This document shows, in pieces, positions 2,785 to 48,940 of a DNA stretch of 64,000 bases. Made by a program: the position numbers and the translations under genes. Source of the DNA: Dehalococcoidia bacterium (lineage in GTDB: Bacteria; Chloroflexota; Dehalococcoidia; Lucifugimonadales; UBA3495); assembly GCA_963664625.1 (NCBI GenBank), contig OY761541.1, forward strand, positions 2,571,670 through 2,635,669. Reading direction: 5' to 3'. The first letter of the stretch is position 1, and each line of letters opens with the position of its first letter. The notes under the pieces were generated by a model, which was not told where the DNA came from, made no database searches, and saw only the letters and a program-made list of their open reading frames with translations.

Positions 2785-5700
2785 TTATATGCGGCGCACC
2801 CCCAGCGTTATCTCCATCCCCTCGACCTTGGACTCCTCTGAAGCCGCGCCTTCCCCGTGCCATCCGGCGGGATCCGGCGGCGGGCCGGCCACCAAGTCTT
2901 CGCTGAGGGTTTCCTGGCGGATGTAGTCGGAGAAGTTGCCCCGCATTACGCTGCTGATTTCCGACGGCGCGTCGTAGTAGGTGACGATCCGGTCGGTCAG
3001 TTCGAACTGGGCGGCGCGGCGCAGGTTCTGTATCCGGTGCACCAATTCCCTGGCCAAGCCCTCCTCCGCCAGTTCCGGGGTGATGGTTGAGTCCACCGCC
3101 ACCATGTAGCCGCCTTCCAGCGCGACGGACCATTTCCGTTCGATCCCTTCTCCGGGGGACCATTCCACCTGTACAACTCCTTCTGTTTTATCTTCTAGTC
3201 TCCCAAGTGCCATCTCATATAGAGACGACGACAACTCATCAATGAAGTCTTCCTTAACGTTTAGTTCCTCTAGAATCTGAGGCCTTATCCAGCCAAAGTA
3301 TTTTCTCTCTTCAGCAGACCTTGGCTTGATGAGTACTCTGGCAAGCGGCTGGCGCACCTTGAGTCCGGCCTTGGAGCGGGCATTGCGGCCCATGCTGGAG
3401 ATACGCATTGCCAGCCGCATCGCTTCCATCAACGGCTCTTCGATGAGGGATTGATCAGGTATTGGGAAGTCGGCCAGGTGCACACTGTCGGGTGCTTCGG
3501 CGTCCACCGAGCATACCAGGTTCTGGTATATCTCCTCGGCGATGAAGGGAGACAAGGGAGCCATCAGCTTGGAAAGAGTCACCAAGCAGGTGCGCAGCGT
3601 GATGTACCCCGACAGCTTGTCTTGGTCGTTCTCGCTCTTCCAGAAGCGGCGGCGGCTGCGCCGGACGTACCAGTTGGACAGTCGGTCGATGAACTCCTGC
3701 ATCCGCCGCCCGGCGTTGGTGGGGTCGTACCCGCCCAGGTACCCGTCAACCTGGCCGACAAGGGCGTTCAATTCCGACAGTATCCACCGGTCCAGTTCGT
3801 GCTCCGGCTTCCACCCGTCCGGCGTCTGATCGGGATGAAACCCGTCGATGGAGGCGTAGTTGGTGAAGAACGAGTAGACGTTCCAGAGGGTCATCAACAC
3901 CCGGCGCAGCGTCTCGTTGACCAGCTTGGCCGAGAAACGGCGCGCCTCGCCCGGATGGGACGCGGTGAACAGGTACCAGCGCAGGGCATCGGCCCCGTGC
4001 TGGTCCAACACCGGAATTGGTTCGACGACGTTGCCGGAGCTTTTGCTCATCTTCCGGCCCCGCTCGTCCAGGATCAGGCCCAAGCAGATTACGTTGCGGT
4101 ATGAAGGCGTGCCTTCCAGCAACGTGGACAGTGCGTGGAGGCTGTAGAACCAGCCCCGCGTCTGGTCGACGGCTTCGCAGATGTAGTCGGCGGGAAACCG
4201 CCCGTCCTGGCTGATGCCAGGATTGTCGAAGGGATAGTGCCACTGGGCAAAGGGCATGGCGCCCGAGTCGAACCAAGCGTCCATCACCTCCGGGATGCGG
4301 CGCATCTGCCCTTCGCATCCCTCTTCCGGGCACTTCAGCAGGACTGTATCGACGTATGGGCGGTGCAGGTCCAGGTCGTTCAACAGGGGTGTGTGCTCCG
4401 GGATGGCATGGGACTTCAGCTCCTCCACGCTGCCTATGCACATGGTATTGTTGCAGTCATCGCACTGCCAGATGGGTATGGGCGTTCCCCAATACCGCTC
4501 CCGCGAAATGGCCCAGTCCACGTTGTTGCGGAGCCACTCCCCGAACCGGCCTTCCTTGATGTAGTCGGGGTACCAGTTGATGGAACTGTTGCCGGAAACG
4601 AGTTGGTCTTTCAGCGCCGTGGTGCGGATGTACCAAGAGTCCTTGGCGTAGTAGAGCAGGGGCGTATTGCACCGCCAGCAGAAGGGGTAAGTGTGGTAGT
4701 AGGTGTCCTTGTTGAACAAGAGTCCACGCTTGTCCAAGTCCTTAATGATTTCTGGATCGGCGTCCTTTACGAACTTCCCCTTCCATTCGTAGTCCCCGGT
4801 AACGTTGCCTTGAAGGTCAACGGGTTGGACAAAAGCCAGGCCTTTCTCCCGGCCCAGACCCAGGTCCTCGTCGCCGAATGCCGGGGCAATGTGGACGATG
4901 CCGGTGCCGTCGTCCATGGACACGAAATCGGCGGCCACTACTTGCGGATTGACCGTAGTATCGGCTGACAACTCGGTGATCGTACCGCCGGGGGTCTGTC
5001 GGTGCATGAACCGCTGGATTTCCACGCTGTATTCCGGAGGTGAGTACAGGGGCCGGTAGCCGATGCCGACAAGGTCGGCACCTTTAACCGTGCCTAACAC
5101 GCCGTAGGAGTCCCGCATGTTGGCGTCCAGCAGTTCGGAAGCCAAAACCAGCCGTTCCGTAGCCCCGTCCCTTTCCAATTCCACTATGGAGTAGTCGGCG
5201 GCCTCGTCCACGGCCAATCCCGTATTGCCGGGAAGGGTCCAGGGAGTAGTCGTCCATGCCAGAAGGTAAGTGGGCACGCCCGAAGTCAGCATAGCCGCTC
5301 CGTCGTCACCCTCTGGTGCGGTCTCTACCAAGAACTTGACGAACACTGACGGGTCGGGGGTGTCCTCACGATAACCCAGCGCCACCTCATGTGAACTGAG
5401 GCTGGTGACGCAACGGGGGCAGTGGGGAGTGCCGCGCATGTCCCGGTAGAGGAGACCCTTGTTCCACAACTCCTTCAGGATCCACCATCCCGACTCTATG
5501 TACTCGTTCTCCAGAGTCACGTAGGGGTCGTCCATATCCACCCAGTAGCCGATGCGGTCGGTCAGCACTTCCCACTCTTTCAGGTAGTGGAACACACTCT
5601 CCCGGCACTGCTGGTTGAACTTCTCTATGCCGTACTCTTCCACTTCGCGCTTGGTGCTCAAACCGAGGGACTTCTCCACCTCCAACTCCACCGGCAGGCC

Positions 5701-5964
5701 GTGGGTGTCCCATCCGCCCTTGCGCAGGACACGGTAGCCCTTCATGGTGCGGTAGCGGCAGATAACGTCTTTGAACACCCGGGCCAGGACATGATGGATG
5801 CCGGGACTGCCGTTGGCGGTGGGAGGGCCCTCGAACAGGGTAAAGAGAGGGCTGTCCTCCCGTTCGGTCTCGGTGCGGCGGAAGACGTCCTTGTCTTTCC
5901 AGTATTGCAGTATGCCGGCGTCCACCTCGGGAAAGTTGACGCGGCTGGAAACGGGCTTAAACAT
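2785..5964 (-). CDS. ileS: Isoleucine--tRNA ligase
   Basis: 1059 aa. Class I HIGH-type motif (PGIHHVLARV), KMSKS motif and editing domain, with length and layout typical of IleRS. Confidence 0.95.
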   Translation of the reverse strand: MFKPVSSRVNFPEVDAGILQYWKDKDVFRRTETEREDSPLFTLFEGPPTANGSPGIHHVLARVFKDVICRYRTMKGYRVLRKGGWDTHGLPVELEVEKSLGLSTKREVEEYGIEKFNQQCRESVFHYLKEWEVLTDRIGYWVDMDDPYVTLENEYIESGWWILKELWNKGLLYRDMRGTPHCPRCVTSLSSHEVALGYREDTPDPSVFVKFLVETAPEGDDGAAMLTSGVPTYLLAWTTTPWTLPGNTGLAVDEAADYSIVELERDGATERLVLASELLDANMRDSYGVLGTVKGADLVGIGYRPLYSPPEYSVEIQRFMHRQTPGGTITELSADTTVNPQVVAADFVSMDDGTGIVHIAPAFGDEDLGLGREKGLAFVQPVDLQGNVTGDYEWKGKFVKDADPEIIKDLDKRGLLFNKDTYYHTYPFCWRCNTPLLYYAKDSWYIRTTALKDQLVSGNSSINWYPDYIKEGRFGEWLRNNVDWAISRERYWGTPIPIWQCDDCNNTMCIGSVEELKSHAIPEHTPLLNDLDLHRPYVDTVLLKCPEEGCEGQMRRIPEVMDAWFDSGAMPFAQWHYPFDNPGISQDGRFPADYICEAVDQTRGWFYSLHALSTLLEGTPSYRNVICLGLILDERGRKMSKSSGNVVEPIPVLDQHGADALRWYLFTASHPGEARRFSAKLVNETLRRVLMTLWNVYSFFTNYASIDGFHPDQTPDGWKPEHELDRWILSELNALVGQVDGYLGGYDPTNAGRRMQEFIDRLSNWYVRRSRRRFWKSENDQDKLSGYITLRTCLVTLSKLMAPLSPFIAEEIYQNLVCSVDAEAPDSVHLADFPIPDQSLIEEPLMEAMRLAMRISSMGRNARSKAGLKVRQPLARVLIKPRSAEERKYFGWIRPQILEELNVKEDFIDELSSSLYEMALGRLEDKTEGVVQVEWSPGEGIERKWSVALEGGYMVAVDSTITPELAEEGLARELVHRIQNLRRAAQFELTDRIVTYYDAPSEISSVMRGNFSDYIRQETLSEDLVAGPPPDPAGWHGEGAASEESKVEGMEITLGVRRI

Positions 5965-9955: not shown

Positions 9956-9985
9956 ATTATAGGAGAGGGTAAAGTGGGGTGTCAA
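9956..9985 (-). promoter_or_regulatory. Sigma-70-type promoter for the riboswitch-thiC operon
   Basis: Minus strand reads TTGACA-18 nt-TATAAT, about 25 nt upstream of the aptamer. Confidence 0.6.
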
Positions 9986-10061
9986 ATTGGACGCTCTGAT
10001 GTCAGGGTAACCGACTATCCAAAAACGGGCATTTTATTGTTCGTCGCTACTTCGCTCCAGA

Positions 10062-10553
10062 TTACTTTGTCATTAACTCTGGGCACAGAAAAACTGCTTT
10101 AATGCCGTGGCGACGTGACCCTTCACGATGAATCCACCAGTCAGTATCTGAAGCGTTCAGGATATCCGGCTCGTTGCCGCTGGCATGGGCCACCGCAACG
10201 AACTTCCGGTCGCTGCGGTCGAAGGCCATAAGGTCTGGGTCATCAGGAAATTCCTCGAAATCCCGGTCAGAGTGAAGGTTTACTGTTACTTTACGGCAAT
10301 GTTCCGGGTTTGCCTGATTTTCAAAGAGCCACCGGAAAAAGGCATCCCCAATCCCGGGCTGCCCGGACGGGTGAAGGTTGTTACGGTATTCCGTGAGGAT
10401 CAAGCTGCTATCGTTCAACAAGACCCAGCCGTCATTCTGTATACGTTGCAACGTCCGTATGCACTTAAGTATGCAGTCCAGTCCTGCCTGTTGGGTCTTG
10501 CCGTTAGCCACAACAGCAACGTTTGTGTCTATTACTACCTCCAATCCCGTCAT
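10062..10553 (-). CDS. PIN-like nuclease-fold protein (163 aa), partner of the upstream ATPase
   Basis: The ATG overlaps the ATPase TGA (ATGA). VVIDTNV at the N-terminus, then acidic positions TEY, DRSDRKFVAVAHAS and NASDTDW in the order expected for the four PIN acidic residues. Confidence 0.55.
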   Translation of the reverse strand: MTGLEVVIDTNVAVVANGKTQQAGLDCILKCIRTLQRIQNDGWVLLNDSSLILTEYRNNLHPSGQPGIGDAFFRWLFENQANPEHCRKVTVNLHSDRDFEEFPDDPDLMAFDRSDRKFVAVAHASGNEPDILNASDTDWWIHREGSRRHGIKAVFLCPELMTK

Positions 10554-11923
10554 GCCGGCTCGGAATTCTTTTGTCGGTTCAGGGAGGCCTCGCTCATGGC
10601 GGCGATCTCGCCAAATTGGTCTCCAAAGAAATCCCTGGGCCAATTGACAATATTCCCGTATTCGTCGAGTTGAAGGTGACTGAGGCTTGAACTCCCATTC
10701 TCTCCCATAGAGCAGAAATACAGCCCTACATCATCTTGCTCGATACCCTCTTCGGCAATGCGTCGCTGGAGTCTGCGAAGCAGATGTTCGCTGTGACTCT
10801 CGAACAGTATCTGAATTCGATAATTCTTCCAAGCGTCGATGAAGACATCGGCAAGGTCGGCTTGGGCGGAGGGGTGTAAGTGGATGTCCGGTTGTTCTAA
10901 GATCAAAGTAGACATTGGAGGCACATAGAAGCATAAGACAAGAACCGGCAAAACTTGGGAAATTCCAAACCCTACGTCTGCTAGGAGAACCTCAGGGGCA
11001 GTGGGTGACCTCCGCACCGTGGCTTCAAATAAACGGTTGCCAGCGTCCAGTGCCTCGACTCGAAAGTCATGGGCGAGTCCGAGCCGTTTAAGCCAGCTTG
11101 CGATGTATGCGTCAATTCTGGAGAATCGTAGTGCAGAGTCATCCCATATAGCCCGACCATCCTGCTTGGATGCGGCTATAGCGCCGACTACAAATTCTCC
11201 TGTCCGACCCACACCTGAGGGTCGGGTACCGGACCAGCGGTATATGCGCTGTGGCTCGGCACGAAGAGGGCCAAGATAATGCACATTGTGCAAGAGCGAT
11301 TCTAGCCCGTGCTGCAAGCTGGAAAGGAAACCACGGTCTTCAAAGTCCCCCTCTATCCAGCGACTAAAATCGTTAAACTGAAGTGTCGGTGTAGGAATTA
11401 TTTGCCCCGGGCGAGGATTGTGTTTGAACTCCTTGCCATCGACCAATTGGGCGTAACCCCGCCCATTTGGTAGACGTCGCACTCCGAATCGCCGACGATG
11501 GGGAATCCGATAAGACATTTCTTTCAGTACCGGAGGCCCTCTGAATTCGACGACCTCTTTGCCTATTTCAGTATCGAAACCGACGTCGGCATGACTGTCT
11601 ACAGAGCTGTTCCCATACTTTTCTGGAACCACTATTTCTCTTTCGGATTGCCAGTCTAGCGAAAACTTAATGGTCTGATTCGTGTCTTGACAGTGGATGA
11701 CACCCTCGAAGTCGCCTACGGCGACGAGCGTTCGCTCGTCGCCGAAATGGAGCACGACTCCGCGGTCTGAAGAATCAACTGTCTGCTTCATCAGGAGTAG
11801 GGCCTGAAGCAGGCTGGTCTTGCCGGAACTGTTTGTCCCGAATAACCCGGTAATGGGCTTCATCGGGATATCCCCGGTATCCTTCCAGGACTTGAAGTTC
11901 TCCAGCCGCAGCCGCGTAAGCAT
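10550..11923 (-). CDS. ABC/SMC-like AAA ATPase (AAA_15/21 type) with DUF3696-like C-terminus
   Basis: ATG at 11923 is preceded by GAGGAG. RLENFKSW...GLFGTNSSGKTSLLQAL (Walker A), LGPLRAEPQRIY, LILEQPDIHLHP (Walker B/D-loop), ESHSEH (H-loop), NWPRDFF tail. Confidence 0.8.
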   Translation of the reverse strand: MLTRLRLENFKSWKDTGDIPMKPITGLFGTNSSGKTSLLQALLLMKQTVDSSDRGVVLHFGDERTLVAVGDFEGVIHCQDTNQTIKFSLDWQSEREIVVPEKYGNSSVDSHADVGFDTEIGKEVVEFRGPPVLKEMSYRIPHRRRFGVRRLPNGRGYAQLVDGKEFKHNPRPGQIIPTPTLQFNDFSRWIEGDFEDRGFLSSLQHGLESLLHNVHYLGPLRAEPQRIYRWSGTRPSGVGRTGEFVVGAIAASKQDGRAIWDDSALRFSRIDAYIASWLKRLGLAHDFRVEALDAGNRLFEATVRRSPTAPEVLLADVGFGISQVLPVLVLCFYVPPMSTLILEQPDIHLHPSAQADLADVFIDAWKNYRIQILFESHSEHLLRRLQRRIAEEGIEQDDVGLYFCSMGENGSSSLSHLQLDEYGNIVNWPRDFFGDQFGEIAAMSEASLNRQKNSEPA

Positions 11924-11948
11924 CGGGATTCTCCTCATAAGGCCCAGG

Positions 11949-12176
11949 TTACTCGGACTGGTCTGCATCCCATCGGATGCCTGTGCTGAAAATGTCGCCC
12001 TTGATTTCGATCTGGTCCCGCAAGCTGCCGATCAGTTCTGCCCATCGCCCGTCAAATGATGTGACCTTCGCAACAGGCTTTCCATTCCGGGTGATAATCA
12101 GTGCTTCGCTGCCGAGTTCGTCCAGAAGCCTCAGGCACTGTCCTTTGAAACCAGCCACGTCAATGGTTTTCATCAT
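11949..12176 (-). CDS. Phd/YefM-family type II antitoxin-like protein
   Basis: 75 aa. MMKTIDVAGFKGQCLRLLDEL...IITRNGKPVAKVTS...IEIKGDIFSTGIRWDA resembles the Phd subtype usually paired with VapC toxins. Confidence 0.7.
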   Translation of the reverse strand: MMKTIDVAGFKGQCLRLLDELGSEALIITRNGKPVAKVTSFDGRWAELIGSLRDQIEIKGDIFSTGIRWDADQSE

Positions 12177-12199
12177 GAATCACTTGATCTAATCTGGAT

Positions 12200-12208
12200 A
12201 CATTATCA
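12200..12208 (-). promoter_or_regulatory. Candidate extended -10 element (TGATAATGT) for the antitoxin-ATPase-PIN operon
   Basis: Minus strand TGATAATGT lies 23 nt upstream of the ATG. Similar TGATAnAAT elements precede the two other ATPase operons. Confidence 0.35.
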
Positions 12209-12254
12209 ATTGTACCCATACCCCACTACCAGCCGCATCCAGTCAGTCATCCTT

Positions 12255-12773
12255 CTATTCGAGCTTCGGAAGGATCTGGTACCAACCAGAACCGAAGAGA
12301 AGGCCGTCGTGTCGAACGACCCAAGAGTGCTTGTACTCCTGGTTGCCTGTATTGGGGTTGAGGAACAGGTAGTCTACCCACAGCCCGTCCTCTCCGGCCT
12401 CCAGCATTACGTCTCCGAACCGGTAACCCGCCGAATCGACGCCCAAGTCGCCCTTCAGGTCACGGCCCAACTGCTCAGGAACAGCATGGGCGATGATCCG
12501 GTCATCTTCGTCCAGAATAAACACATACCATTCCCCATTCACGCTCTCCGGGGAGTTGTAATATCTGACGGTAGCCTCCCGCCCTTCCTTGTCATATCGT
12601 TTCAGCGCCTGCTTCACTTGGTCAACGGTAAACTCACCCCGGTCCGCCAGATGAATGCTTTCATCTTCACTTTCGGCGACGCTCATTGAGGAGACCAGTG
12701 TGAAAATGGATACGGCCAGCGCGGCCACGGCCACCACCGACGCAAATGACGCGAGAATCACCGCTTTGCCCAT
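12255..12773 (-). CDS. Membrane-anchored extracytoplasmic Cache-like (sCache_2-type) domain protein
   Basis: Start at the internal ATG (MGKAVILASF...), one TM helix, then YYNSPESVNGEWYVFILDEDDRIIAH...GLWVDYLFLNPNTGNQEYKHSWVVRHDGLLFGSGWY, typical of single-Cache domains. Confidence 0.6.
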   Translation of the reverse strand: MGKAVILASFASVVAVAALAVSIFTLVSSMSVAESEDESIHLADRGEFTVDQVKQALKRYDKEGREATVRYYNSPESVNGEWYVFILDEDDRIIAHAVPEQLGRDLKGDLGVDSAGYRFGDVMLEAGEDGLWVDYLFLNPNTGNQEYKHSWVVRHDGLLFGSGWYQILPKLE

Positions 12774-12959
12774 CTTAATAACTCCAAACGGTCGAGAGGT
12801 AATTGTAGCTGCAACCAGTCCTGTGTGGCGGCAAACGTGAGACATTATCTCAACAATGAGGCCACTTTGAAAGAGAGGCCTCTAACCCTCATTTGTGACC
12901 GTCAACGTAGGGTGTTAAACTGAGGCCGATTCGAAAATCGTGAGGCGCAGGGTACTTCC

Positions 12960-19990: not shown

Positions 19991-20938
19991 TCACGTCTTG
20001 GTGATTTTCGGGCCGACGTAAACCACGTATAGAGGCTCGCCCGCAGGCACCGGCCAGGAAAAATGAAGCCGTATTACTTCTGTCTTTACCTTGCCGTGCC
20101 AAGTGCAAAACAGGCGTTGACCGGGTGAGTCGGGGTGGGGAAACGTCAGATCGTTCTCGAAGCGGCTCTTTTCAGTGGTTGAGGAGTCCGTAAACCAAGC
20201 ATTTCCTCCGGTGAAATGGTCCTGAAGTATCCGGTAGTTCTCCGGTGTGTAGTGGCCTCGTTCGTCGATAGCCCCCATAAACCGGTCGAGGGTATTCAAA
20301 AGACGTTGGATGCCGTGGGCGGCTCCCGGAACAAAAGGATGACCTTCCAAGGGAGCGAAACTATCTTCCGAGAACCTCAGTCTTTGATAGCGTGAAATGG
20401 AGATGTTTTCCAATTGCCGCCAAGTGGTAACTGGCGGCTCTGCGCGCTCCAGCGCCGCCGCTAGTCCCTTCTCTTCCCACCAGTTAGGCGTCTCGATAGT
20501 GTCCCTGCCGTTTTCCGTCAAGACGACAGGGATGGGCGAATATTCCCAAGCCGACGGAGATACGCTCACCAACTGGCGGTCGATTCCCATAGTTTTGCAG
20601 TAGGCAGCCTCGCCGACAGCAGTGTCGGTGACAATCTTGCCGCCGCACTCCAGCCAATGGTCGGGGTTATGTTCCCGCACATCCTCCCAGAATGGCCCTT
20701 GTTTTGTCATCCACGACAGAAGAGACCCCTTTTGGTCACGGGAAAATGTCTGGAGGGCTTGAAAGACCGAAGTGGACGGGTTGATAGAACAGTTCAGTGT
20801 GTTCCTGTGGCAATGCAATTCGCGGCCAAATCGCTGGGCGAGTCTGCGCATCCCGACGATTCGGCCAATGGCTACCCGGAACACCGCTGCATCGTGAAAC
20901 TGCTGATGAATCGACAGATCGTTGAGAAGAAGTTCCAC
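19991..20938 (-). CDS. Hypothetical 315-aa protein, third gene of the DUF262-ATPase operon
   Basis: The GTG start abuts the ATPase TAA (TAAGTG). I recognise no motif with confidence. The C-terminus FCTWHGKVKTEVIRLHFSWPV..LYVVYVGPKITKT is faintly RelE/HigB/Gp49-like. Confidence 0.5.
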   Translation of the reverse strand: MELLLNDLSIHQQFHDAAVFRVAIGRIVGMRRLAQRFGRELHCHRNTLNCSINPSTSVFQALQTFSRDQKGSLLSWMTKQGPFWEDVREHNPDHWLECGGKIVTDTAVGEAAYCKTMGIDRQLVSVSPSAWEYSPIPVVLTENGRDTIETPNWWEEKGLAAALERAEPPVTTWRQLENISISRYQRLRFSEDSFAPLEGHPFVPGAAHGIQRLLNTLDRFMGAIDERGHYTPENYRILQDHFTGGNAWFTDSSTTEKSRFENDLTFPHPDSPGQRLFCTWHGKVKTEVIRLHFSWPVPAGEPLYVVYVGPKITKT

Positions 20939-22081
20939 TTATTCGCCCCAACCGGCAAAGTAGTCCAGGTCCTTGTCGAACTGGTCGAAAAAGCCTTCAG
21001 GCCAAACGTCAATGCTACCGGAACTGTCCAGGGTTGGACTCAACACTTGGGAAGCACCCCGAGTGCGTTGCCTGAAAAAGTGAATCGCTACCTCATCAGC
21101 CGAGATGCGCTCCGACTTGACGGACCGGCGAATCCCGTTGAGAACATGGTCACTGTGGGTTTCCACGATCGTCTGAATACCGGCATGGGCAACGTCCGCC
21201 AGCAATTGTCCCATAAGGGCCTGTCCGGCTGGGTGTAAATGCACTTCCGGGTTTTCTATCAGCATAAGACTGCCCTTGGTGACAGTGAGGGCAGCGACTA
21301 TGATCGGTAGGATTTGCGTAATGCCAAACCCACAGTGGACTGGTCTTAGGAACCCCGTATCGTTGGAAGTGCGGATTCCCAGGGTCGCTGCATTGGCGTT
21401 AGGCACCTGCTGCACGTCAATGGCGCAACCCGGGAAGAATGACGAGAGCCTTGCCCCGACCTGATGTAGCAGAGTCGGAAGATCGTCCTCTAGCAAGAGA
21501 TCCCTCGCGATAAGTTCATCTCCTCTGCCCCAGTATAAAACGCTTACCGCATTCTCCCCCTGAGGGCCAACTAATGTGGCGATATGCTGGTCTTCCAGTA
21601 GATAAGTTTCACGGGGTCCCTCACGCTCCGCCGTAATATATGTTAAATTTCTAATCTGGCTTATCAAAGATATGATGGCATCGTCCGCATCAGCGGGCAA
21701 CAGGTAATGGAGAGTGTCAGGGTTATCATATCTGGCATCTCCGATCTGAACGCGATTGACTTGCATAGACATGTCCTGCCGGTCGCCAGTGAAGGACCAT
21801 CGACAAATTGCACTTTCGTCCATGAGTCCAATGTCGAACCGGCGAGTGCCATTTACCTGGTCAACCACGTCCGTCACGGTTCCAAGTTTGGTTATTGAGC
21901 CGTTAAGCATCAGACGAGTGGACCATTCACGTTCGCGCATGGTTTGGTGTAGTAAGACGAGAGACTGTATAACCGTAGACTTTCCAGACGCATTTGTTCC
22001 CGACAGTAGAGTAAGTGGGCAGAGCGGAAGTCTCAGAAGTTCAAAGCACTTGAACGTCTCGAGGTCAAGTCGAGTCAGCAC
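20939..22081 (-). CDS. ABC/SMC-like AAA ATPase with DUF3696-like C-terminus (paralog 2)
   Basis: GTG at 22081 lies 6 nt after GGAGG and overlaps the DUF262 gene by 17 nt. LETFKCF...LLSGTNASGKSTVIQSL (Walker A), YITAEREGPRETY, LMLIENPEVHLHP, ETHSDH, VWPEGFFDQF. Confidence 0.8.
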   Translation of the reverse strand: MLTRLDLETFKCFELLRLPLCPLTLLSGTNASGKSTVIQSLVLLHQTMREREWSTRLMLNGSITKLGTVTDVVDQVNGTRRFDIGLMDESAICRWSFTGDRQDMSMQVNRVQIGDARYDNPDTLHYLLPADADDAIISLISQIRNLTYITAEREGPRETYLLEDQHIATLVGPQGENAVSVLYWGRGDELIARDLLLEDDLPTLLHQVGARLSSFFPGCAIDVQQVPNANAATLGIRTSNDTGFLRPVHCGFGITQILPIIVAALTVTKGSLMLIENPEVHLHPAGQALMGQLLADVAHAGIQTIVETHSDHVLNGIRRSVKSERISADEVAIHFFRQRTRGASQVLSPTLDSSGSIDVWPEGFFDQFDKDLDYFAGWGE

Positions 22082-23174
22082 CAAACACCTCCTGAAACAT
22101 CTTCGCGGTTGCATTGAACCTATGATCAACCCTTCGAGTATCGTTGGTGCCGTAAGTGATGGACGTTATGAAATCATCATCTTTCATAAGCTTATGGAAT
22201 GCTTTCTTGAGAGCACATGCTCGGCTCTTGACCAACTCTTGCGGGAATCGTGAGAGGCCGGTCGTCATAACATCCCACAAAGAGGCATTGATGACACTCC
22301 GGCGGCTTTGGCCTTCGAGATGCTTCCGAAAAGCGTGTTCTTTAAACACTACAAAGTTGTTGTTCAACCCAGTGTAAAACTCGGCTGATAGCCTTGAAAG
22401 CTCAGCATCTCCAAGATGATTCATAAGTTTGAGTGTGTCCGCCAGAAAATCATCCATTTCACCACGATAAGTGTCACGCGACAAAAGTTGAAATCCACAG
22501 AAACGGTTCACGAACTCCCGGTCGCGCATTTGTGCGGTGTTCAGACTGCCACCCGTAGCTTCCAGAAAAAGAGGTTTATTAGCTTCTTCTTTCAAAAAGC
22601 GGGTTCCTGGCCCCATGTATAGGCAATTCCGCATCTGTTGGCGGGTCAGGGGTGCACCGCCGTTCACACGCTCAAATATGTCTAGGCGTGCCCTTTCAGG
22701 CGCTTTTGAGTCTATGATGTATAGCGTAAGGTTACAGTCCTCAATTCGGTTCTGTAGCCTGGACGGTAAGTCATTAAAATGCTTCCCGTTCAATTCGGGA
22801 TGATCGTGCAGCCGTAGAGCAAGTCTATTGTCTACGAAGTTCTGAAAGGTAGAAAGCCGTTGCAAGCCGTCAACCACGACCATCCGGCCGTCTTCATTTT
22901 CCGCGATGTAGAAGACCGGCAATGGTATTCGCATCAACACCGACTCGATTAACTTGCTTTGTTTATCTACAGGCCAAATGAAGTCACGTTGAAAGTCTGG
23001 GTCCATAATGAAATTGCCTTGGCTAATCCTTCGCAGCACGTCGTGAATAGTGCGACTCTCATTGCGAATAAGCATAGTGTCAAGAGGATATTCGCCTAGA
23101 GCACTATCTTCAGGACTCCCGATGCCTTCAGGTTCTTCTACTTCTGAATCCACCTGTTGCGTAGTCACGAACAT
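22065..23174 (-). CDS. DUF262 (ParB/Srx-fold, DGQQR-type) protein
   Basis: DPDFQRDFIWPVDKQSKLIESVLMRIPLPVFY...VVVDGLQRLSTF is the DUF262 N-terminal signature. At 369 aa, no DUF1524/HNH-like His-Me motif was noticed. Confidence 0.75.
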   Translation of the reverse strand: MFVTTQQVDSEVEEPEGIGSPEDSALGEYPLDTMLIRNESRTIHDVLRRISQGNFIMDPDFQRDFIWPVDKQSKLIESVLMRIPLPVFYIAENEDGRMVVVDGLQRLSTFQNFVDNRLALRLHDHPELNGKHFNDLPSRLQNRIEDCNLTLYIIDSKAPERARLDIFERVNGGAPLTRQQMRNCLYMGPGTRFLKEEANKPLFLEATGGSLNTAQMRDREFVNRFCGFQLLSRDTYRGEMDDFLADTLKLMNHLGDAELSRLSAEFYTGLNNNFVVFKEHAFRKHLEGQSRRSVINASLWDVMTTGLSRFPQELVKSRACALKKAFHKLMKDDDFITSITYGTNDTRRVDHRFNATAKMFQEVFGADST

Positions 23175-48863: not shown

Positions 48864-48940
48864 TGGTCGGGGCGCCCGGATTTGAACCGGGGGCCCCCTG
48901 CACCCCATGCAGGTGCGCTACCTGGCTGCGCTACGCCCCG
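48864..48940 (-). tRNA. tRNA-Pro (anticodon GGG), CCA encoded
   Basis: Manual cloverleaf fold: acceptor CGGGGCG/CGCCCCG, D arm GCGC/GCGC, anticodon arm CCTGC-ATGGGGT-GCAGG (U33, GGG, G37), T arm CCCGG-TTCAAAT-CCGGG, then ACCA. Confidence 0.9.

Follow-up and report, generated by a model that had tools for sequence, protein, structure and literature searches.

We examined three adjacent open reading frames (ORFs) on the minus strand at 10062-12208 of a 64,000-nucleotide (nt) stretch of contig OY761541.1 (hereafter the window, on which all locus coordinates are based), two of which match the described defence system HEC-03. The ORFs encode a Phd-like protein of 75 amino acids (aa), an ABC ATPase of 457 aa and a protein of 163 aa (Table 1). 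A ribosome-binding site (RBS), GAGGAG at 11936..11931, lies within the spacer between the first two genes, 7 nt ahead of the ATPase ATG at 11923. We rejected a longer ATPase start at 11968 (472 aa), as position 1 of the family profile aligns with the RBS-bearing ATG at 11923. An earlier reading of the locus from the letters alone (the sequence-only reading) had proposed that the trio form an undescribed, ATPase-coupled toxin or defence operon. Its description of the DNA was accurate throughout, including the three minus-strand genes, the 25-nt gap with GAGGAG, the ATGA overlap and the protein motifs. The three ORFs are real genes rather than chance frames, and the 163-aa protein has ~1,600 homologous clusters.

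The same reading had called the block AT-richer than its surroundings, which the base counts bear out. Specifically, the GC content of the ATPase-163-aa segment is 52.3%; the window as a whole has 58.7%, and the neighbouring thiC, LMWPc and aminotransferase genes have 60-63%, which makes the block foreign in composition. GC at third codon positions (GC3) was 0.56-0.59 in the segment versus 0.78-0.85 in these housekeeping neighbours. We note that the GC3 of phd and of the Cache gene beside it was also atypical (0.63-0.65 vs. 0.78-0.85).

The ATPase carries the motifs GTNSSGKTS, LILEQPDIHLHP, ESHSEH and NWPRDFF, and its Pfam matches were AAA_15 (3e-21), AAA_21 (2.7e-20) and DUF3696 (3.4e-10), the type that had been expected from its motifs. 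Across 76 members of the ATPase family, the Walker A residues G29, N31, S32, S33, G34 and K35 were conserved, as were E343-Q344 at the D-E position of Walker B, R221 (in LGPLR), G318 and G320 (GxG for SGG), ESHSEH and the NWPxxFF tail. The intact Walker A motif together with the E-Q and GxG variants suggests an ATP-binding switch with slow hydrolysis.

When compared with the hidden Markov models of PADLOC-DB v2 (v2.0.0), the ATPase matched PDLC04148 ('HEC-03B') at 8.9e-126 and 418.6 bits, with residues 1-452 aligned to positions 1-453 of 458. The next-best families were far weaker (NsnB, 2.5e-61; PDC-M55A, 8.9e-58), and the AriA profiles reached 1.7e-22. The sole PADLOC match of the 163-aa protein was PDLC04147 ('HEC-03A'; 1e-36, residues 5-160 on positions 2-154 of 159). 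Because both proteins match the HEC-03 profiles over their full length, the ATPase and the 163-aa protein are, on profile evidence, a bona fide member of HEC-03. Here the sequence-only reading, which knew of no named system of this make-up, has to be corrected, as HEC-03 has been described and tested. In the available text of the preprint, HEC-03 is an Hma-embedded candidate composed of an ABC ATPase and a VapC-like PIN protein (Payne et al., bioRxiv 10.1101/2024.01.29.577857). The tested system was reported to lower the plaquing of two or more phages in Escherichia coli by orders of magnitude, to need both genes for defence and to be apparently toxic on induction with isopropyl β-D-1-thiogalactopyranoside (IPTG); its PIN protein was likened to active VapC RNases (bioRxiv 10.1101/2024.01.29.577857). 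The A and B labels are swapped between sources: the ATPase is HEC-03A and the PIN protein HEC-03B in the preprint text, and PADLOC uses the two names the other way round.

The 163-aa protein has about 1,600-1,750 homologous clusters at 90% identity, which carry no Pfam assignment. None of the NCBIfam profiles matched it, and a profile search of Protein Data Bank (PDB) sequences with its family returned only spurious SH3 and antibody matches (E>0.4). Since the sequence-only searches gave no significant PIN match, its assignment to the PIN proteins rests on fold and conserved residues. An AlphaFold2 (AF2) model built on a 27-sequence alignment of close homologues was unusable (mean predicted local distance difference test score, pLDDT, of 43). 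We enlarged the alignment by 120 more divergent homologues, retrieved by searching with a family member of 51% identity. With 150 sequences the model reached a pLDDT of 94.9 and a predicted template modelling (TM) score of 0.90. The top Foldseek matches of this model in the PDB were PIN proteins, led by Mycobacterium tuberculosis VapC (7vwo_A; probability 1.0, TM 0.51/0.57), with FitB, Rickettsia felis VapC2, PAE0151, SMG6 and HARP following at TM 0.5-0.6 (5sv2, TMt 0.59). D9, E55, D115 and D136 were invariant across the 150 homologues and present in the window protein, in the canonical PIN D-E-D-D pattern. On the model and the alignment, the 163-aa protein appears to be a divergent PIN protein that looks catalytically competent, and the PIN-like fold and acidic quartet of the sequence-only reading were thus borne out. 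We note that the Caldilineaceae contig L080 (6001..6486) holds a PIN homologue with an in-frame stop, a probable pseudogene that we discarded as a query for the diversity search; a second, intact copy is found in the same genome (L065).

To evaluate how far the pair is conserved, we used loci of PIN homologues from 80 species-representative genomes (Chloroflexota, Latescibacterota, Acidobacteriota, Proteobacteria, Planctomycetota and others). The ATPase gene lay immediately upstream of the PIN gene on the same strand in 79/80 loci, with a contig end as the lone exception, so that the expectation of a pairing conserved outside this genome was well founded. The identical 4-nt overlap was present in 59 of the 79 paired loci. 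No conserved small gene was found upstream of the ATPase in these 79 loci, where the neighbours were heterogeneous (DUF1156 methylases, DUF4432, thiolase, VWA, toxin-antitoxin (TA) and divergent genes). In four loci (L049, L053, L066 and L078), HEC-03 directly followed DUF1156 methylases, the Hma embedding described in the available preprint text. Besides these genomes, PIN homologues with 38-43% identity were found on 12 plasmids of Aeromonas, Acinetobacter, Tistrella, Azotobacter and Rhodococcus (including NZ_AP022291.1, NZ_AP021928.1, CP119202.1 and NC_017966.1), most of them conjugative or mobilizable. The plasmid homologues are annotated only as 'hypothetical protein', and among the matches listed a 'DUF3696 domain-containing protein' adjoins in 4/8 records. 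Phage records yielded no homologue of the HEC-03 PIN.

It could be argued that the pair is a TA or addiction module that stabilises mobile DNA and is not primarily anti-phage. The PIN protein would then be the toxin, and the ATPase a non-canonical antitoxin. The VapC-like PIN, a translational coupling like that of TA operons, the homologues on plasmids and among TA genes in many loci, and the toxicity reported on over-expression would all be in line with this. However, the tested HEC-03 is reported to reduce plaquing strongly and only with both genes, members of the family are embedded in Hma beside DUF1156 methylases, and the ATPase groups with the ABC ATPases that act as sensors in PARIS, Menshen and Gabija. 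We consider an addiction module unlikely, and note that TA and defence roles are not mutually exclusive.

A second defence system of related design lies in the same window. A complete Menshen system (19991..23174, minus strand, 51.6% GC) adjoins uvrA, and its three genes are recognised by PADLOC (Table 1); HEC-03 and Menshen are thus two paralogous DUF3696-ATPase systems ~8 kb apart. The HEC-03 ATPase and the window's own NsnB align end to end (26% identity, E=1e-27), pairing EQ with EN, R with R, GFG with GFG and one DUF3696 tail with the other. The available text on Menshen describes in NsnB an E-N at Walker B, an Arg for the Q motif and a GxG, and presents AlphaFold3 models in which NsnB tetramers are predicted to grip NsnC by its PIN-like N-domain, with DUF3696 making the contact; NsnC itself combines an inactive PIN-like N-terminal domain with a separate C-terminal nuclease effector domain (PMC12065111). 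With the DUF3696 tail and all three motif deviations in common, the HEC-03 ATPase is a sister of NsnB, and its partner is PIN-like as well. In contrast to Menshen, HEC-03 comes without NsnA (ParB-DUF262 plus ParBDB), the genes upstream in the window being phd and the Cache-like gene, and its PIN protein is free-standing and of a single domain, keeps D-E-D-D and has neither a fused C-terminal nuclease nor a match to NsnC. By analogy, we infer that HEC-03 is a minimal relative of Menshen that does without NsnA and whose effector is the PIN protein itself. Menshen is named in the preprint as one of the defence systems whose ABC ATPase domains are of a similar kind (bioRxiv 10.1101/2024.01.29.577857). 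The relationship is not drawn in the available text of the preprint or of the Menshen paper, and 'HEC' is absent from that of the latter.

The closeness to NsnB (2.5e-61), whose partners are reported to carry inactive PIN domains, raises the alternative that the 163-aa protein, like the PIN domains of NsnC, has no catalytic activity and serves as a PIN-like adaptor, the real effector being encoded elsewhere; its single Pfam match, to PIN_3 at a non-significant E=0.17, would agree with this. The four invariant acidic residues at the expected PIN positions argue otherwise, as do a conserved unit of just two genes that adds no further effector domain, and the similarity to active VapC RNases reported in the preprint. 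We regard a dead adaptor as very unlikely.

The Phd-type gene has a different history from the pair downstream of it. Its product matched Pfam PF02604 at E=2.2e-5 and 24.5 bits, under the 29.8 cut-off and over the N-terminal half only; PF02604 is assigned to all eight other homologous clusters of this protein. Searching with phmmer and with a nine-sequence profile, we found that none of the 80 HEC-03 loci has a Phd homologue 5' of the ATPase gene. The sole Phd match among these loci was marginal and lay downstream on the opposite strand (L071). The closest HEC-03 relatives (L001 and L044, with 73% and 69% PIN identity) have no upstream antitoxin either. For the reciprocal test, we used 80 genome loci with this Phd subtype (C-terminal GDIFSTGxxWDA), in 77 of which the phd ORF was found. 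A VapC homologue of ~120 aa lay directly 3' of phd in 66/77 loci, mostly with a 14-nt overlap, and HEC-03 was present at 0/80. The sequence-only reading was therefore right that this subtype normally precedes a VapC, and its three-gene system did not hold up in either direction. In the window, there was no homologue of the Phd-family VapC (best tblastn E=0.39) that could serve in trans and no VapC or DUF4268 remnant, and the HEC-03 PIN showed no similarity to the VapC of the syntenic locus L086 (BLASTP E=3.6). Judged by these counts, Phd is not a conserved or required component of HEC-03. As for the operon proposed at the outset, the ATPase-PIN coupling and, through HEC-03 membership, a defence role stand; the third component and the novelty do not.

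The locus could be followed only in metagenome contigs L081-L086. The flanks of L081, L082, L084 and L086 were ~90% identical to the window; aminotransferase-LMWPc borders the locus at one end and thiC-GYD-thiD at the other, and the contents in between differ (Table 1). The segment 9995..~11947 was unique to the window. On its left, homology to the syntenic relatives ended at the phd stop codon (window ~11947-11965); on its right, flank homology to the four contigs resumed at 9994-9988, at the thiC -35 box, and all syntenic loci aligned from 'CCAATTTGACAC' onward. Homology to other HEC-03 loci (L001 and L044; 77% nt identity) was confined to 11935..10071, beginning 12 nt 5' of the ATPase ATG, and thus covers the RBS and the two ORFs with no promoter region. 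Because the ~90%-identical flanks hold a VapC, a DUF4268 protein or nothing after phd in the relatives, HEC-03 is, by these comparisons, a horizontally acquired, promoter-less cassette of ~1.95 kb that occupies the place of the toxin gene in a resident Phd(VapB)-VapC module. On the same comparisons, Phd is the remaining half of the resident Phd-VapC pair, whose toxin slot was overwritten. LMWPc-phd-thiC synteny was absent from species-representative genomes at the loci of the closest ThiC (81% identical, Dehalococcoidia metagenome-assembled genomes).

Table 1. Features of the HEC-03 locus and the Menshen system in the window, and contents of the LMWPc-thiC interval in the window and its syntenic relatives.
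Feature	Position	Strand	Remarks
67-nt tail of window-specific segment, 3' of PIN stop	9995..10061	-	Right junction 9994/9995, abutting thiC -35 box
HEC-03 PIN-like effector, predicted (163 aa)	10062..10553	-	ATG overlaps ATPase TGA as ATGA (10550-10553)
HEC-03 ABC ATPase (457 aa), NsnB-like AAA_15/AAA_21 type with C-terminal DUF3696 tail	10550..11923	-	
25-nt spacer, phd stop to ATPase start	11924..11948	-	Left junction of the predicted acquired cassette falls here
Phd/YefM-type VapB antitoxin gene (75 aa), apparently orphaned	11949..12176	-	Stop is TAA
TTGATAAT, -10-like box	12202..12209	-	25 nt 5' of phd ATG; from alignment of phd upstream regions
NsnC	19991..20938	-	PADLOC 4.6e-113
NsnB	20939..22129	-	PADLOC 8e-102; AAA_15/AAA_21/DUF3696
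NsnA	22065..23174	-	PADLOC 6e-117
Window interval	LMWPc to thiC		Cache + Phd + HEC-03
L081 interval	LMWPc to thiC		Cache + Phd (92% identical) + DUF4268 split by insertion sequence (IS) element
L082 interval	LMWPc to thiC		Phd + VapC 5' remnant + Cache
L084, L085 interval	LMWPc to thiC		Phd + DUF4268 protein (weak match to PADLOC candidate PDC-S11)
L086 interval	LMWPc to thiC		Phd + PF01850 VapC (119 aa) + Cache

A parallel to this arrangement was found in a Caldilineaceae genome (OZ253474.1; L025/L248), where a MazE/AbrB-type VapB antitoxin gene lies 35 nt upstream of HEC-03. Homologues of this antitoxin (45 loci) are mostly followed by a PF01850 PIN gene of 131-134 aa with an ATGA overlap, and the homology of L025 to the antitoxin paralogues ends at the antitoxin stop codon. 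In a syntenic sister species (L011; 81.5% nt identity), the antitoxin gene is a pseudogene with a frameshift and internal stops, and HEC-03 is intact (ATPase 453 aa, PIN 167 aa). Because the antitoxin has decayed in L011 while HEC-03 has remained intact, HEC-03 there is independent of it. The antitoxin-HEC-03 segments span 4389..6498 in L025 and 4388..6498 in L011.

These results bear directly on the possibility of a genuine three-component system, in which Phd neutralises the PIN protein or represses the operon and the ATPase senses the phage. Such a system would account for the tight linkage of the trio (25-nt gap and ATGA overlap), for a Phd subtype that is a dedicated partner of PIN toxins, for a phd gene under purifying selection with its C-terminal motif intact, and for the second, unrelated VapB-type antitoxin directly upstream of HEC-03 in L025; if over-expressed HEC-03 is toxic, as reported, an extra brake could help. 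It is difficult to reconcile with a trio that recurs in none of the loci searched from either side, with the lack of an upstream antitoxin in the closest HEC-03 relatives, and with a HEC-03 PIN dissimilar to the cognate VapC of the Phd family. The decayed antitoxin of L011 and the reported two-gene defence in E. coli argue in the same direction, and according to the syntenic relatives phd was in place before the cassette arrived. We consider a three-component system quite improbable.

Transcription of a promoter-less cassette has to come from elsewhere, and the region upstream of phd is the nearest candidate. The TGATAAT core within TTGATAAT was conserved in 5/5 syntenic phd loci, although the consensus scan called no full sigma-70 promoter upstream of phd, and the terminator scan found no terminator-like site between phd and the ATPase gene. 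The -10-like box probably serves as the promoter of phd. Given a promoter-less cassette, a conserved TGATAAT and no terminator-like site ahead of the ATPase gene, HEC-03 is likely transcribed by read-through from there. A terminator-like site inside the ATPase gene (10975..10948) was dismissed as chance, as it has only 3 G-C pairs and the scan returned 6 sites against 3.4 expected.

It is possible that Phd has been co-opted, being kept to autoregulate the shared promoter and so to buffer a toxic cargo, with VapB genes acting as landing pads. This explanation, which we hold tentatively, would fit a cassette without its own promoter region behind a conserved TGATAAT box, purifying selection on phd regardless of the cargo, four cargo states at one slot, the parallel AbrB-HEC-03 junction and the apparent toxicity of the tested homologue on induction. 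Against it, such regulation is evidently dispensable in L011, where the antitoxin is a pseudogene; the operator and promoter are putative; the selection would be explained equally well if Phd neutralised a VapC paralogue encoded at another site in the genome; and the sample is small, with two independent events. More broadly, VapB-type genes might offer defence cassettes a landing site that can be used repeatedly, along with a promoter and possibly a safety catch, an idea that we find doubtful. In its strongest form, Phd would directly regulate or neutralise the HEC-03 PIN; if so, the window would hold a natural, antitoxin-gated variant of HEC-03.

Taking the profile, synteny and conservation results together, we think it very probable that the HEC-03 pair is an acquired cassette in a toxin slot and that Phd is a leftover neighbour rather than a third component. 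Nonetheless, several observations weigh against this interpretation. Pairwise ratios of non-synonymous to synonymous substitution rates (dN/dS) came to 0.13-0.25 for phd irrespective of the cargo, which indicates purifying selection, and to 0.06-0.11 for LMWPc. The phd gene of the window is intact, lies 25 nt from the ATPase gene and keeps its toxin-binding C-terminal motif (GDIFSTGIRWDA). One would hardly expect these features of a mere relic in decay, so a functional role for Phd is possible, be it as a regulator, a safety catch or an antidote to a VapC elsewhere in the genome. Two independent antitoxin-to-HEC-03 junctions may mean that the association is not pure accident. With regard to the effector, the PIN domain is divergent: in addition to the non-significant PIN_3 match, the Foldseek E-values were modest (best 3e-3), and the available text of the preprint contains no active-site mutants of HEC-03 (bioRxiv 10.1101/2024.01.29.577857). 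Finally, the anti-phage role of the Dehalococcoidia pair is a prediction, as defence, the need for two genes and toxicity are all carried over from the homologue tested in E. coli.

How the pair might work can be outlined by analogy. The NsnB-like ATPase would oligomerise and hold the PIN protein through its C-terminal DUF3696 tail at residues ~394-441, for which the DUF3696-to-PIN contact predicted for NsnB is the best available model. On sensing a phage cue, the ATPase could release or activate the PIN protein, which would then cleave RNA at the D9-E55-D115-D136 metal site; growth of the infected cell would stop, and phage production would be blocked. Both the sequestration and release of PIN by the ATPase and the RNA target are inferred. 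The Phd gene would most likely supply the promoter, and possibly autoregulation, for HEC-03. If this outline is correct, HEC-03 offers a simple system for how DUF3696 ATPases gate PIN proteins.

When compared with the tested HEC-03, the pair in the window agrees in both protein families over full length, in its two-gene make-up, in tight coupling and in a VapC-like PIN with the acidic quartet. It differs in lying outside Hma, in a Phd-VapC toxin slot beside thiC, and in its Dehalococcoidia-like Chloroflexota host, the tested system having been assayed in E. coli. PARIS likewise consists of two genes, with an AAA_15/AAA_21-type ABC ATPase that senses infection and gates a nuclease attacking host RNA. 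The HEC-03 effector, however, is a PIN protein with no match to AriB, DUF4435 or Toprim, and the ATPase is much closer to the HEC-03 and NsnB profiles than to AriA. Type II VapBC modules share the Phd/YefM-type VapB upstream and the VapC-like fold of the effector. They differ from the present locus, where the cognate VapC is missing, a 457-aa ATPase stands between antitoxin and PIN, the sequences of the PIN and the cognate VapC are unrelated and the arrangement is unique to the window lineage. For annotation, we suggest a HEC-03 defence system with an orphan Phd/VapB antitoxin gene upstream; no new system name is needed. The series of syntenic loci appears to document the precise replacement of a toxin gene, from the antitoxin stop codon onward, by defence cargo unrelated to it; an independent parallel exists in Caldilineaceae. 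The series can be seen as a small example of TA loci and defence cassettes exchanging parts.

The sequence-only reading had placed the block between the thiC riboswitch promoter and a Cache-domain gene. The former was confirmed, with a perfect TTGACA-n18-TATAAT promoter at 9985..9956 in the consensus scan and, downstream of it and ahead of thiC on the minus strand, a thiamine pyrophosphate (TPP) riboswitch (RF00059, 9815..9928, 64.7 bits). The latter is less certain, as the Pfam Cache-domain matches of the gene upstream of phd (12246..12878) were weak and sub-threshold. The terminator scan found no terminator-like site between the PIN stop and the thiC promoter, so that transcripts from HEC-03 might run on into the thiC leader. 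The position of the Cache-like gene varies among the loci: it precedes phd in the window and in L081, follows phd(-VapC) in L082 and L086, and is missing from L084. This marks the intergenic region between LMWPc and thiC as a small hotspot of rearrangement. The DUF4268 genes at this site were located at 2397..3242 in L084 (281 aa), 2393..2956 in L085, and 5084..5842 and 7039..7287 in L081, where the IS element encodes an rve transposase. The DUF4268 protein matched PDC-S11 weakly (5e-12), and the Phd-DUF4268 pairing may be a separate, uncharacterised TA-like or defence module. The window also holds a tRNA gene on the minus strand at 48867..48940.

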